Of a stretch of DNA of 52,884 bases, positions 4,716 to 8,262 are shown piece after piece. Below the pieces are notes generated by a model. That model was not told the DNA's origin and did no database searches. It saw only the letters and a program-made list of their open reading frames with translations. The position numbers were made by a program, and so were the translations under genes. How positions within the stretch are numbered: position 1 is the first letter of the stretch; each line of letters starts with the position of its first letter. This stretch comes from Candidatus Thorarchaeota archaeon (lineage in GTDB: Archaea > Asgardarchaeota > Thorarchaeia > Thorarchaeales > Thorarchaeaceae): NCBI GenBank assembly GCA_004376265.1, contig SOKL01000045.1, positions 1 through 52,884 of the forward strand. Reading direction: 5' to 3'.

Positions 4716-4793
4716 ACACCTATGGGACGTGTCAAGCACGGCAACCCCGGTATCGGTGCTACAAAGTCTTCAGCATATGTACCGTTGAAGTAA
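4716..4793 (+). pseudogene. rps19: orphan 3' end of ribosomal protein uS19 gene, copy 1 (putative att scar)
   Basis: Translates [25 protein letters not shown], matching the archaeal S19 / eukaryotic S15 C-terminus (cf. [20 protein letters not shown]); no upstream uS19 coding sequence. Confidence 0.9.
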
Positions 4794-4835
4794 GAACCAG
4801 TATTGTAGCACAGAATCATAAACACTAATTAGTGA

Positions 4836-6779
4836 ATGAGTAATTTCCATTTGTCTGTGGTACAAGTGGGATTCGTAAGAATAGATGAGGTTAGAGTCAA
4901 ACATGTTATTGTATTTCTTTCTCTATCTTTACTCATCGTTGCCCCATTAGTTTCATCCAATCAAAGAGTAACAGAACCTAATGTAGTTGTAGAAGAGTAT
5001 CAAATGGAGGGATCAACAGGATACACAGTCAGCAAAACATCCTGTTCACCTCAAAGTGAAGTTGTAGTCTATAATGGAACTGTCAAGGATCCAGGAGCAG
5101 ATTGGTATTCAGAGAGTTTCCATAGTGAAATCCATACTGGTATAACTAGTGTCAATGTAGAACTTAGCGGCACTGTGCCTATTAGTAATAAGATTTCCCA
5201 TATTTCATGGGCGAAATTCTATGGTAATCCAACCCTACCTCTTTTGAACTATTCTGAAGTGACTGTTTCAGTCCCCCTTAAATCTCTTCGAGGGTCAGCT
5301 AACATAACCGTATATGTGTATCCGAAAGCATGGCCAGATACTGAATATCGTGATTACTGGGAGATTGCCACACATTTAGAAGAGGGCAACTCTGAAACTC
5401 TGGTGTTGAACCCCTCCATTAACAGAACTTACAATCTTAGCTCTGGTTGGATTGTTCGCTCCAATATACTTGTAGACATCATTTCAACAGAAGAGTCACT
5501 AATTCAAATTGGCGAGGTTGTAATCTCAGCCAGGTCAACCGAAGATCTCTATCCAGTCACATTTGATTTTCAAAGTCCTGATGGAGAGAGCCTTCTTCTT
5601 AACCCATACATGTACACACTTCGTGAAACAGACACACATACAGTAAATGGAGAGTTAGCCTGTTATCCAGCGCTGGAACTGACTCGTACAGGAAACATCA
5701 CAGAATCCTCAATTTTTGTGCAGCGAACCTTCAATGAAACCCTCTATCTTGCAGCAGGTCAGTATGAGGGAGTTGCAGGATGGTTCACTATGAGTGAGGG
5801 AATTTCGGGATGGCCCCATATGAGTCTTCATGATTCAACATTCAATGTCAGCTTCGTAGTCGAACCTGGAGATTCAATACTTGTCGAAATTAGAGTAACC
5901 GCGTACCGTCTATCTATTGACCTATCCCCGTCATTCGCCTATAGTGTGGTCTGGATAATCGCTGACGAAGCTAGATATAATGGCCTTTTTCCCTTACAAG
6001 AAACCGAGTATCTATTCATACCTGGGAGTGAAGTATACCTTATCACTTTGGGAGCGTCATTCTTAACAAGTACCTATATCTTTGTAGAGACTGAAGGTTC
6101 AACTAGCGTCAAAGTATCGATCACGTATCCACACTTGTCCTTTTTCGGTATGATTCTCGATTGGGGACAGATGATTGGATTAGTTGGAGCATTGTTGTTG
6201 CTTTCAGTATTCGTTTATGAGGGAATAAAGAACAACTTCGTTGGAATGAGAAAACACTGTAATCATAGAATCAGTTTCCTTCCTATCTCTCTCTCTTTCA
6301 TGACACTGATTTTACCATGGGTGAACTATACTTACGAGAGGACATTCACCAATCCAGCTTTTACTGCATTCGCTACAATTATGGTCCCGATATTTACTAC
6401 GTTCTTCTGGAATCCAACGAGTCAAGTCACACCAATATCAAGTAGCAATCCATTTCCAAATGCAATTCCTATCATTTTCCTCTATTGGATTCCAATAGTC
6501 TATCTTAGTTATTTGATAATTACAAGTAGAAACTGTATCAGTCATGATCTGTCAAGAAATGATATGCATCCTTTACTAAGAATAGCAGTTATTGGAGGAC
6601 CATTCATAATAGGTTGTTATTATCTGTGGCTCTGTATATTGGGATTGTATTTCATCGATATTGGACTAGTTGCGGCACTTCTATCACTACCATCATGGGT
6701 CATCGTTCTCAGATTAGAAAAACGAAATAATCAGATTCAGTCAGCAAATGACAATTCGCAGTCACCAATAAACCCGTAA
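4836..6779 (+). CDS. hypothetical membrane protein (signal peptide, extracellular beta-rich region, ~5-6 C-terminal TM helices); cassette cargo
   Basis: 647-aa ORF with hydrophobic N-terminus, many NxS/T sequons and a hydrophobic C-terminal third; stop codon lies inside uS19 fragment 2; true start uncertain. Confidence 0.75.
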   Translation: MSNFHLSVVQVGFVRIDEVRVKHVIVFLSLSLLIVAPLVSSNQRVTEPNVVVEEYQMEGSTGYTVSKTSCSPQSEVVVYNGTVKDPGADWYSESFHSEIHTGITSVNVELSGTVPISNKISHISWAKFYGNPTLPLLNYSEVTVSVPLKSLRGSANITVYVYPKAWPDTEYRDYWEIATHLEEGNSETLVLNPSINRTYNLSSGWIVRSNILVDIISTEESLIQIGEVVISARSTEDLYPVTFDFQSPDGESLLLNPYMYTLRETDTHTVNGELACYPALELTRTGNITESSIFVQRTFNETLYLAAGQYEGVAGWFTMSEGISGWPHMSLHDSTFNVSFVVEPGDSILVEIRVTAYRLSIDLSPSFAYSVVWIIADEARYNGLFPLQETEYLFIPGSEVYLITLGASFLTSTYIFVETEGSTSVKVSITYPHLSFFGMILDWGQMIGLVGALLLLSVFVYEGIKNNFVGMRKHCNHRISFLPISLSFMTLILPWVNYTYERTFTNPAFTAFATIMVPIFTTFFWNPTSQVTPISSSNPFPNAIPIIFLYWIPIVYLSYLIITSRNCISHDLSRNDMHPLLRIAVIGGPFIIGCYYLWLCILGLYFIDIGLVAALLSLPSWVIVLRLEKRNNQIQSANDNSQSPINP

Positions 6780-6838
6780 AACACAGCAACCCCGGTATAG
6801 GAGCCACAAAATCCTCAGCTTATGTCCCACTGAAATAG
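6755..6838 (+). pseudogene. rps19: orphan 3' end of ribosomal protein uS19 gene, copy 2 (putative att scar)
   Basis: Translates [27 protein letters not shown]; begins at the F of the conserved GEF motif; 13 of 14 differences from copy 1 in the last 21 codons are synonymous. Confidence 0.9.
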
Positions 6839-6867
6839 ATGGCAATGGTCATTATTTCATGAAACCC

Positions 6868-6910
6868 TGCTCTGTCAGTTTGATTGAGCAGAGTCACTTC
6901 TCTTTTCCAT
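6868..6910 (+). terminator. hairpin plus pyrimidine tract after uS19 fragment 2
   Basis: CTGCTC...GAGCAG stem followed by TTCTCTTTTCC. Confidence 0.35.
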
Positions 6911-6976
6911 TTAGTTTATCACTTCAAATGCAATATATCCCATAGCTGATTCCATTTACGAGAGGGAACGATTCGC

Positions 6977-8194
6977 GTGGAAGAGGAAAGTAGAGGTATA
7001 CCAAGAAACGTCTTGGTTATGTCTGTAGGCAACACGATAACAACGTCAGCAAACTCGCTATGGATAATGTTCATGCCCTATCTTTTTGCTGATGTAGGAA
7101 TAATTCCGTTCTACATTGGAATCATCTTCACAGGCCTGGCAGTATCAAGAGGAACAGCATCACTTGTTGGTGGTAGAGCTGCAGATAGAATGGGTCGAAA
7201 ACAAGTCATCTACATTGGATATGGGAACTACATTCTTGGAGCACTAGTAATTCTCTTTTCCTTGATATTCTTTTCAACCAATACAAACCTCACAGGGCTT
7301 TTTGCAGTTATAGGTTACATGTGGATGATGGTAGGTAGTGGGTTGCAGAGACCTGCCTCATCAATGCTGTTGATAGAAAGTAGTCCACAGAAACGAAGAG
7401 GGCTCTCATTTATGTTCGCTACAAGATTCCTCCCATCAATCCCCCCTGCGGTTCTAATTCTTATAGGAACATCACTATATGTCAACAATCAGTTCTGGCT
7501 TGGTCTTTCCCTAGGTATCGCAGGACTGTTAGTTGTTCTTTTATTATTCATTGTCTTTCTTCAAGAAACACATATTGGAGCGACCCAAAGCCAGCAAAAA
7601 ATGAGAAGGCCGAGTATTCCACGTTTTGATGGTTTCCTAATTCTACTAGTTGCGGCGTTTGCACTTGATGGAATCTCAAGTAGCGGTCTCTCGTGGTACG
7701 TTCCTATCTTTATTGGGCGGGCAAACGTGGACTTCTATGGAGTCATGATATCAGTTTCCACATTAGTTATTGCTATTTCAGCCTTAGTTTCAGGAGGTCT
7801 GGTAGATCGATTCGGAACTAAAACTGCGATTCTTGGAGGTTGGAGTTTACTTGCAGTCACCGTTGCTTTGTTCCCGTTCGGTTCAACATTACTGGAGATA
7901 GTTATCCTCTACTCGATTTGGGCAGGACTGGACATGGTAGATGTATCAGTACCACCTCTCGCAATTGCCGAGAAATATCCAAAGGAAATGCGTGCATCTA
8001 TCATGGGAACCTATTCAATGTCTGTATCCCTTCTGAGCATGGTTGGACCTGTACTGATATCGTTCGGTCTTCTTCTTGGAGATAATGTGCCCTTTTACAT
8101 GAAAGCAGTAATGAACTCTGTTGGAGTCTTATTCTTCATACTTGCCACAAGACCTAGTCAAATCATTGATGATGATGTTTCAGCTCGCCAATGA
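6977..8194 (+). CDS. MFS transporter; cassette cargo
   Basis: GGRAADRMGRK and GGLVDRFGTK motif A copies, ~12 hydrophobic segments; stop codon lies inside uS19 fragment 3. Confidence 0.9.
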   Translation: MEEESRGIPRNVLVMSVGNTITTSANSLWIMFMPYLFADVGIIPFYIGIIFTGLAVSRGTASLVGGRAADRMGRKQVIYIGYGNYILGALVILFSLIFFSTNTNLTGLFAVIGYMWMMVGSGLQRPASSMLLIESSPQKRRGLSFMFATRFLPSIPPAVLILIGTSLYVNNQFWLGLSLGIAGLLVVLLLFIVFLQETHIGATQSQQKMRRPSIPRFDGFLILLVAAFALDGISSSGLSWYVPIFIGRANVDFYGVMISVSTLVIAISALVSGGLVDRFGTKTAILGGWSLLAVTVALFPFGSTLLEIVILYSIWAGLDMVDVSVPPLAIAEKYPKEMRASIMGTYSMSVSLLSMVGPVLISFGLLLGDNVPFYMKAVMNSVGVLFFILATRPSQIIDDDVSARQ

Positions 8195-8262
8195 GACAGG
8201 TAAAGCACGGAAATCCTGGAATCGGTGCTACAAAGTCTTCTGCCTATGTACCGCTGAAATAA
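8179..8262 (+). pseudogene. rps19: orphan 3' end of ribosomal protein uS19 gene, copy 3 (putative att scar)
   Basis: Translates [27 protein letters not shown]; 9 differences from copy 1 in the last 21 codons, all synonymous. Confidence 0.9.

Follow-up and report, generated by a model that had tools for sequence, protein, structure and literature searches.

A probable array of gene cassettes at the 3′ end of rps19 in Thorarchaeota

The stretch of DNA analyzed here, hereafter the window, is a complete contig of 52,884 nucleotides (nt) from a Candidatus Thorarchaeota archaeon (SOKL01000045.1 in assembly GCA_004376265.1; G000:C20 in our labelling, in which G stands for genomes, C for contigs, L for loci or metagenome contigs, and X for sequencing runs). 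On its plus strand lie three repeats which, from a valine codon to the stop, occupy 4731-4793, 6776-6838 and 8200-8262 and encode a peptide beginning VKH(G/S). Each is a residual copy of the 3′ end of rps19, which encodes ribosomal protein uS19, and comprises the last 21–28 codons of that gene; we refer to these repeats as tails. Clear homology extends over ~75 nt in copy 1 (4707..4793), from ~4716 (TPMGR), and over ~81–84 nt in copies 2 (6752..6838) and 3 (8176..8262), from 6752/6755 and 8179, respectively. A degenerate back-translated pattern of the peptide matched the window exactly three times, at the three tails, as opposed to no match in 100 shuffles. With stop codons just upstream, the repeats are fragments rather than genes.

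Between copies 1 and 2 lies cassette 1 (4794..6751, plus strand), which carries an open reading frame (ORF; 4836-6779) for a 647-aa multi-pass membrane protein without a Pfam family, and between copies 2 and 3 lies cassette 2 (6839..8175, plus strand), which encodes a transporter of the MFS family (ORF 6977-8194; PF07690, E 2e-26). Both cargo ORFs terminate within the tail that follows them, in a different frame: the stop of the membrane protein (6777-6779) is inside copy 2 and that of the MFS protein (8192-8194) inside copy 3. Behind copy 3, a short variable stretch with an 84-aa membrane ORF (8263..8599; ORF 8354-8608, plus strand) leads to the conserved host flank (8600..14652), in which Pfam matches mark an H+-pyrophosphatase (H+-PPase; 8600-10756, minus strand), an LRR protein, a 132-aa protein, a methyltransferase and an M14 peptidase.

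The assembly contains one intact rps19 gene (PF00203 match at C99:3149-3403, E 5e-30), located on a 3.6-kb contig, and copies 1 and 3 encode exactly the last 20 residues of its product. This single gene, whose C-terminal coding end matches the repeats, therefore qualifies as their uS19 (PF00203) source. Throughout the class, rps19 lies outside the usual rpl2-rps19-rpl22 cluster and stands alone after a gene for a ~180-aa TPR protein and a divergent phosphoglucomutase gene (including loci L082-L089); this upstream arrangement, with the phosphoglucomutase gene diverging from the TPR gene and rps19, is kept across the class, and the downstream side varies. In G000, rpl22 is not found behind the rps19 of C99 but on C188, among unrelated genes, and rpl22-rps3 is located elsewhere in the class as well, with unrelated genes upstream. 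Behind the rps19 of C99 are two convergent ORFs without a Pfam family, P306 (306 aa) and BIG959 (at least 719 aa). No contig-end overlaps (20–141 nt) were found that would join C99, the window or the integrase-bearing contigs to one another.

An initial annotation of the window, made from its letters alone, had reported that copies 1 and 3 differ at nine sites of the last 21 codons (stop included), all of them synonymous, that copies 1 and 2 differ at 14, of which 13 are synonymous and one replaces glycine by serine, and that the copies contain no indels. Our recount reproduced all three statements exactly, and the coordinates given for the tail ends also fit, with copy 2 starting at 6776. Copies 2 and 3 differ at 16 sites over the same codons (14 synonymous and two not), and the intact rps19 of C99 differs from copies 1, 2 and 3 at 18, 11 (10 + 1) and 13 bases, with one amino acid change overall. 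When nine random substitutions were placed on copy 1, the peptide remained unchanged in none of 200,000 simulated trials, and 14 random substitutions left at most one amino acid change in none of 200,000. The proposal that these repeats are not the outcome of neutral decay of a local duplication, but diverged as coding sequence, is thus upheld by the synonymous pattern and by the simulations. A dN/dS ratio against the host rps19 was considered and discarded as meaningless, since at most one change contributes to dN and dS has reached saturation (18 differences over ~15 synonymous sites).

The residues just upstream, read earlier as FAVTNKPV in copy 2 and as (S/T)PM(G/R)(R/Q)V in copies 1 and 3, were called correctly and are genuine uS19 sequence: FAVTNKPV and the SSPMRQV of copy 3 represent two allele classes that are present in the intact rps19 genes of related species. 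Class I alleles read EF(S/A)xT(N/T/G/S)(K/R)xV and class II alleles EFSSPM(R/K/Q/G)xV, and both occur in intact genes. Copy 2 belongs to class I, copy 3 to class II, and copy 1 (TPMGRV) resembles class II. In copies 1 and 3, the class II tails, an in-frame ATG (4722-4724 and 8191-8193) would allow a 23-residue peptide corresponding to the uS19 C-terminal tail.

We determined that this arrangement is widespread among relatives, the closest of which in public records is the Candidatus Thorarchaeota archaeon metagenome-assembled genome (MAG) AB_25 (94%). When 28 genomes of the genus were searched with the 28-aa tail, 19 contained two to eight tails, six contained one and three contained none, the last three being 71–85% complete. 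In the class as a whole, 32 of 87 genomes, from at least eight genera, have two or more tails (E <= 0.01); seven of these genera (g1, g16, g17, g22, g25, g26 and g27) are represented by fragments and an eighth by two full copies in G073. In the latter, a single-contig Thorarchaeota genome (CP070658.1), two full-length frames of rps19, oppositely oriented, are separated by ~55 kb (G073:C1 1263512-1263595, minus strand, and 1318908-1318991, plus strand). Within the genus, 37 loci from 27 genomes yielded 65 tails, of which 24 belong to genes that are intact or cut by a contig end and 41 are fragments. The order in the 26 genus genomes that were mapped is TPR gene, rps19, a variable number of units consisting of a cassette and a tail, a 215-aa gene that may or may not be present, and then the genes for H+-PPase, LRR protein, methyltransferase and M14 peptidase; the same H+-PPase flank follows copy 3 in the window. 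In this Thorarchaeota family, the single-copy rps19 precedes zero to at least eight cassettes, each of which ends in the last 63–84 nt of rps19 and consists of one or a few cargo genes, such as those for transporters, membrane proteins and defence-type nucleases. G006 represents an empty site, in which the PPase gene starts 32 nt behind rps19. As is typical of attL/attR-type borders, the inserts are flanked by direct repeats of the 3′ part of the target gene, which itself remains intact; this is evident from the empty site of G006 and from a presence/absence pair formed by the window and the metagenome contig L170.

Cassette families recur in differing orders and in different hosts among the genus genomes. 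The family of the 640-aa membrane protein of cassette 1 is found at this locus in nine genomes, with amino acid identities of 78% in G022, 58% in G016 and 42–47% in the others, and the MFS cassette is shared by G000, G015, G024 and G008, the latter three being the only ones with relatives at this locus (73–77% amino acid identity). Further recurring cassettes are c21_253, TPR-nitrilase, NosD-like, GNAT-OB, a radical-SAM block and nitroreductase. A convergent trio, P306 (~306 aa), BIG959 (~959 aa) and BIG1090 (~1,090 aa), adjoins the intact rps19 with one or more of its members in six genus genomes, and is complete only in G001 and G015 (examples: L070, that is C99, 2-3065; L035, 428-4229; L050, 9449-14582). 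BIG1090 is HerA/DUF87-like with a weak PADLOC match to mad8/HerA; P306 and BIG959 have no Pfam family, and the trio may constitute an undescribed defence system. Defence-type cargo of the arrays also includes a type IV enzyme of the PDC-S02/Mrr type (E 3.5e-140), a DrmC-like PLD nuclease and a nitrilase effector, in addition to the HerA/mad8-like ATPase.

One such event is recorded base by base in L170, whose MFS gene is 98% identical at the amino acid level to that of cassette 2 and which matches window 6776-8261 at 97.2% nt identity. Along this contig, a homologue of BIG959 (81.6% nt identity to that of C99) is followed by an ORF of 150 aa, a first tail, the MFS cassette and another tail. 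The first tail, together with 11 upstream bases, is 100% identical to copy 1 through tail position 47, and it matches copy 2, with two mismatches, from position 35 to past the stop; L170 thus corresponds to the window minus cassette 1. The crossover falls inside a 13-nt run, 4741-4753 in copy 1 and 6786-6798 in copy 2, which is the longest identity between these two copies. The second tail of L170 agrees with copy 3 through position 41 except at positions 20 and 27; past that point, 10 of the next 15 third positions and the stop codon differ, and a different downstream sequence follows. One ORF of L170 (1838-2359; more than 150 codons) enters the tail in frame, which would give a cargo protein with a uS19 C-terminus.

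Logan contigs add further arrangements. Those of the probable source run of the window span copy 2 (5275-7434) and copy 3 (7433-9909), so that the arrangement is not peculiar to one assembler. Runs from three further studies (X2, X6 and X7), which as contigs do not give frequencies, contain window 6762-12000 at ~97–99% identity and nothing of window 1-6760. A 1,554-nt contig of X2 covers 6762-8240 and carries 75 letters ahead of 6762, of which the 30 shown encode the end of the rps19 body (MIGHVLGEFSI); in X2, therefore, copy 2 ends an rps19 reading frame and the MFS cassette lies directly behind the gene. X7 has a different tail-like 5′ part joined at 6770, and X6 has a different downstream partner after 6831 and a different upstream partner before 8200. 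An X6 contig also joins 8258 to 8596, skipping the stretch with the 84-aa ORF, which indicates that this stretch is variable too, although no tail lies behind it.

Comparisons among relatives confirmed that a fragment is a hybrid junction: its 5′ third goes with the upstream cassette, its last codons and the sequence past the stop go with the downstream cassette, and its middle is exchanged. In 11 pairs of tails that have only the upstream cassette in common, identity over codons 1–8 is 0.64, versus a background of 0.41. In 34 pairs that have only the downstream flank in common, just the last two codons and the stop exceed background (0.94–0.98 versus 0.80–0.83), and the middle of the tail is at background in both kinds of pairs. 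The expectation that a fragment would be linked to the cargo gene immediately downstream of it is therefore not borne out, as the signal points upstream. Dense mismatches between recently diverged pairs that share the upstream side begin at position 42 in copy 3/L170, G007/G017, G071/G077 and L184/L182, and at position 36 in G015/G008 and G015/G024; two pairs that share the downstream side have breaks at 66/67 and 69/70. One G015 fragment is identical to G015's own gene from codon 19 (position 55) on, and its middle matches G024/G008. The preferred exchange zone is at positions ~28–47, which also offer the fewest synonymous options, and is not a single point. An inverted-repeat core around this zone, considered by eye, was dropped as not common to both allele classes.

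The working gene is itself affected by this exchange. Among 29 gene-attached sequences (from the genus, other genera and metagenome loci; four of the 29 read as fragments that passed the filter), third-position identity of the 66-codon body does not correlate with that of codons 14–28 (r = 0.00 over 406 pairs). In the three closest pairs, third-position identity is 0.82–0.86 in the body and 0.33–0.47 in codons 14–28, for which the baseline is 0.39; in G008/G024, body (0.79) and tail (0.80) agree. With the last ~15 codons thus unlinked from the gene body, tail swapping is real, and the proposal that cassette gain also exchanges the uS19 tail allele is supported, the tail of the working gene being replaced independently of its body. 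The 5′ part of intact tails tracks the host and not the first cassette: members of the P306-BIG959-BIG1090 trio come first in six species, and among these six the 5′ part occurs as five different alleles.

In the initial annotation, each fragment was regarded as a former working C-terminus from a different lineage, and hence as a barcode of its donor. That fragments have served as working C-termini agrees with copy 2 ending an rps19 frame in X2; the assignment of one donor to one fragment has to be given up, since the fragments are mosaics. Likewise, donor signal resides in the 5′ part, and the fragment as a whole, being a hybrid junction, cannot serve as a barcode. The clearest such barcode is the 5′ part of copy 3, and it is tied to the upstream cargo: copy 3, which stands behind the MFS cassette, reads FSSPMRQV, and the intact alleles of G015, G024 and G008, the only other genus genomes with an MFS cassette, read EFSSPMRQV. 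As read from the tail alignment, copy 3 and the intact gene of G008 differ at two of 32 bases over positions 4–35. Copy 2 had been taken to come from the most distant donor; from tail position 35 on, near-identical strains carry copy 2, which contradicts this. Over the last 21 codons, synonymous sites have reached saturation (tails of different genomes differ on average at 16 of 63 nt), and donors therefore cannot be named from these codons. Accordingly, the placement of donors by these codons has almost no power: the best matches of copies 1, 2 and 3 differ at 5, 8 and 6 sites, with nearest-neighbor P values of 0.037, 0.41 and 0.11 against a null of independently drawn codons.

Tails within a genome differ at 13.3 sites on average, versus 16.1 between genomes (permutation P < 0.0005). 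Since same-genome tails are only slightly closer, gene conversion within genomes was rejected as an explanation of their conservation. The divergence of fragments is largely synonymous, as had been noted, yet they do decay: 12 of the 41 fragments have two or more changes in the 20-residue core, 15 have one and 14 have none, whereas gene-attached tails have none in 18 cases and one in six. Array-terminal fragments are the most damaged. Third positions account for 68% of the differences between fragments and for 84% of those between intact tails. The fragments are either young relative to speciation or repeatedly renewed, and both fit frequent tail-by-tail exchange with selection acting on the pieces that are placed on the gene.

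Taken together, these results suggest, with a probability that we put at about 0.6, that the region is a cassette array anchored on the rps19 3′ end, in which tail-by-tail recombination swaps both the cassettes and the end of the gene. Two tails recombine reciprocally, so that cassettes are gained, lost and reshuffled and every event leaves hybrid tails. The gene retains its body and its own 5′ tail part and receives a new 3′ part, and the old 3′ part is shifted behind the cassette. A tail piece that lands on the gene would have to encode a working uS19 C-terminus and would thus come under selection each time it is used, a filter that would account for differences being synonymous; displaced tails would slowly decay until they are overwritten or lost. 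Exchange might proceed through host recombination at short identical runs in the conserved core, with the cassettes arriving as circles or as tail-flanked fragments. That it is driven by homology and needs no element-encoded integrase is the view towards which we lean, at roughly even odds.

A number of observations weigh against this interpretation. Random pairs of tails are ~75% identical and hence a poor substrate for classical homologous recombination. Six of the eight mapped recent breakpoints, as well as the L170 crossover, lie within positions ~28–47, and this zone may be the core of a recombinase site and not just the part of the tail in which synonymous options are fewest. Tail homology never reaches 5′ of tail position 1 into the gene body, and it begins within positions 1–7 in 16 of 40 fragments, beside at least seven unrelated cargo families. 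Such a sharp 5′ edge is the product expected of a site-specific cut; plain homologous recombination yields it only if all tails stem from one founding duplication. The difference between L170 and the window can be read as an insertion or as a deletion, and no circular form was seen. Moreover, the order from C99 to the window is backed by L170 only through the BIG959 homologue, at the 81.6% nt identity given above, and the 30 rps19-body letters shown for X2 differ from C99 at several synonymous sites and at one residue, so that C99 may derive from another strain or may have recombined.

Several of these points would be explained by an integron-like or integrase system, in which a recombinase encoded elsewhere or on a helper element joins circular cassettes at a core around codons 12–16 and the rest of the tail restores the gene. 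The sharp common 5′ edge, the clustering of recent breakpoints and the L170 crossover at positions ~28–47, and an array of small, often single-gene cassettes that persists over eight genera all speak for it, and integration into the 3′-distal parts of archaeal protein genes, including tandem arrays, is documented (PMC6563490). We nevertheless consider such a system rather unlikely. Pfam scans of 284 ORFs within and beside the arrays (12 of the window and C99, 204 of 310 at genus loci and 68 of 74 in other genera, those omitted belonging mostly to conserved flank families) detected no recombinase or integrase family, and thus neither an integrase of the element's own beside the att-type site nor an adjacent IntI-type tyrosine recombinase; the sole mobility-type matches, two IS605 TnpB genes, are located outside the tail-bounded part, the first upstream of rps19 and the other past the last tail. 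PF00589 matched no array contig. It was found in only eight of the 28 genus genomes, always on other contigs, whereas all 14 control genomes matched, and the 20 genomes without a match include some that are more than 90% complete (G001, 97%; G004, 95%; G013, 93%; G014; G042; G011); a universal XerA-type recombinase is therefore not detectable with that model. PF00239 has no match in G013 and G071, which lack PF00589 too, nor in G073. A single fixed crossover is also difficult to reconcile with the breaks at 66/67, at 69/70 and at codon 19 or with the mosaic patches of 10–25 nt in the working tail of G015, and with four pairs first differing at position 42 and two at 36, no single point fits without unlikely chance matches. 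On the other hand, the genomes are MAGs, in which mobile elements, with their integrases, are often left unbinned, a divergent recombinase would escape Pfam, and the scan covered 204 of the 310 ORFs of L033-L069 and 68 of the 74 of L074-L081. The downstream flank also has a conserved gene of family PF10107 ('endonuclease related to archaeal Holliday junction resolvase'), 6–10 kb beyond the arrays (L033, L041, L045, L046, L048 and others); its proximity is probably coincidental.

Two further accounts fare much worse. That the fragments are kept for their own expression, either as C-termini of cargo proteins or as small peptides, could draw on the ATG six codons into copies 1 and 3 (4722-4724, 8191-8193), on the long ORF of L170 that is in frame with its tail, and on the mostly synonymous differences between fragments of different species that neighbour homologous cargo. 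However, copy 2 and, more generally, the class I fragments have a stop or lack a start just upstream, the cargo ORFs of the window end in the tails out of frame, and fragments gather replacements and stop codons, which makes this account very improbable. Still more improbable is that the gene end was duplicated in tandem on the spot and its copies then drifted neutrally, or that several strains were assembled into a chimera. Repeats at contig-poor MAG loci are a known source of misjoins and the contigs of many relatives break at rps19, but synonymous-only divergence is incompatible with drift, the copies are too different to be collapsed repeats, independent Logan contigs bridge copies 2 and 3, and the arrangement recurs in dozens of MAGs that come from separate studies.

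The proposed cassette array has features in common with several known systems. One of these is tandem site-specific integration at the 3′ end of tRNA or protein genes, known from archaeal integrated elements and from the tycheposon islands of Prochlorococcus. In PMC6563490, 14 of 68 thaumarchaeal elements reside in the 3′-distal parts of protein genes, and tandem arrays are described there too. According to that source and to bioRxiv 10.1101/2020.12.28.424599 on tycheposons, the repeat is likewise the 3′ part of a target gene that remains intact, partial copies border successive insertions, older units are located farther from the gene, and the cargo is adaptive or defensive. Unlike those elements, the rps19 arrays that were examined yielded no integrase or other mobility gene, their units are mostly single cargo genes of 0.6–4 kb, and their target is an essential ribosomal protein gene, the last ~15 codons of which are exchanged between lineages by crossovers that vary within the repeat.

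Integrons, with the recombinase IntI and the sites attI and attC, accumulate small, mostly single-gene cassettes at one site, each with a recombination site, which are shared among relatives. The rps19 array similarly consists of small cassettes at one chromosomal site, each closed by a recombination site and reshuffled among relatives. However, no IntI-type recombinase is adjacent, the cargo lies in both orientations, and the repeat is a gene end conserved at the amino acid level instead of a structured attC. Flexible genomic islands, which are exchanged by homologous recombination between conserved flanks, are similar in having conserved flanks (here the TPR gene with rps19 and the PPase block), content that varies between strains of one species, mosaic junctions and no dedicated enzyme. 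They differ in that the rps19 island is divided into separately exchangeable units by a short internal repeat, the gene's own tail, and in that this repeat itself belongs to an essential gene.

Asgard archaea are the closest prokaryotic relatives of eukaryotes, and very little is known of how they acquire and exchange genes. The locus is a defined hotspot, conserved across the family, at which individual genes, some of them for defence, enter, leave and pass between species, and its junctions can be resolved to single bases. The separate history of one part of rps19, an essential ribosomal protein gene, bears on marker-gene phylogenies that use uS19. With this locus one can also put to the test the idea of a recombination site that protein-coding selection polices, and if no dedicated recombinase exists, the locus would represent a simple and general route to cassette arrays. 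The literature searched on tycheposons and on Asgard and Thorarchaeia mobile elements, including PMC8813620 and PMC11529989, contains no description of an rps19-anchored array. The strongest form of the proposal seems to us tentative at best: that Thorarchaeota possess a chromosomal cassette platform independent of any known integrase family, whose site is the uS19 C-terminal coding end kept by selection on the ribosome, and whose cassettes, many of them for defence, are traded across species and genera, each exchange rewriting the end of rps19.

The part of the window upstream of copy 1 (1..4706) comprises one or more further cassettes of the array and is truncated by the contig start. It carries genes on both strands, with Pfam matches: an ORF at 312-836 (plus strand), a Schlafen/AlbA_2 protein at 1010-2164 (minus strand) and a 790-aa protein with a cytidine/dCMP deaminase domain at 2268-4640 (minus strand). 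No relatives of its ORFs were found in other arrays, and 1..4706 is absent from X2, X6 and X7 at a likeness of at least 90%. The region has a weak PADLOC match to PDC-S50, and the Schlafen/AlbA_2 and deaminase-domain proteins, which adjoin each other 5′ of copy 1, give it a defence-like look.

Rfam, terminator and promoter scans of 4300-8800 returned nothing relevant. By eye, many tails have, within ~10 nt of the stop, a short GC-rich sequence that looks like a hairpin with T-runs. A few such sequences recur and are common to otherwise different cassettes; these may be rps19 terminators that travel with the left end of each cassette.

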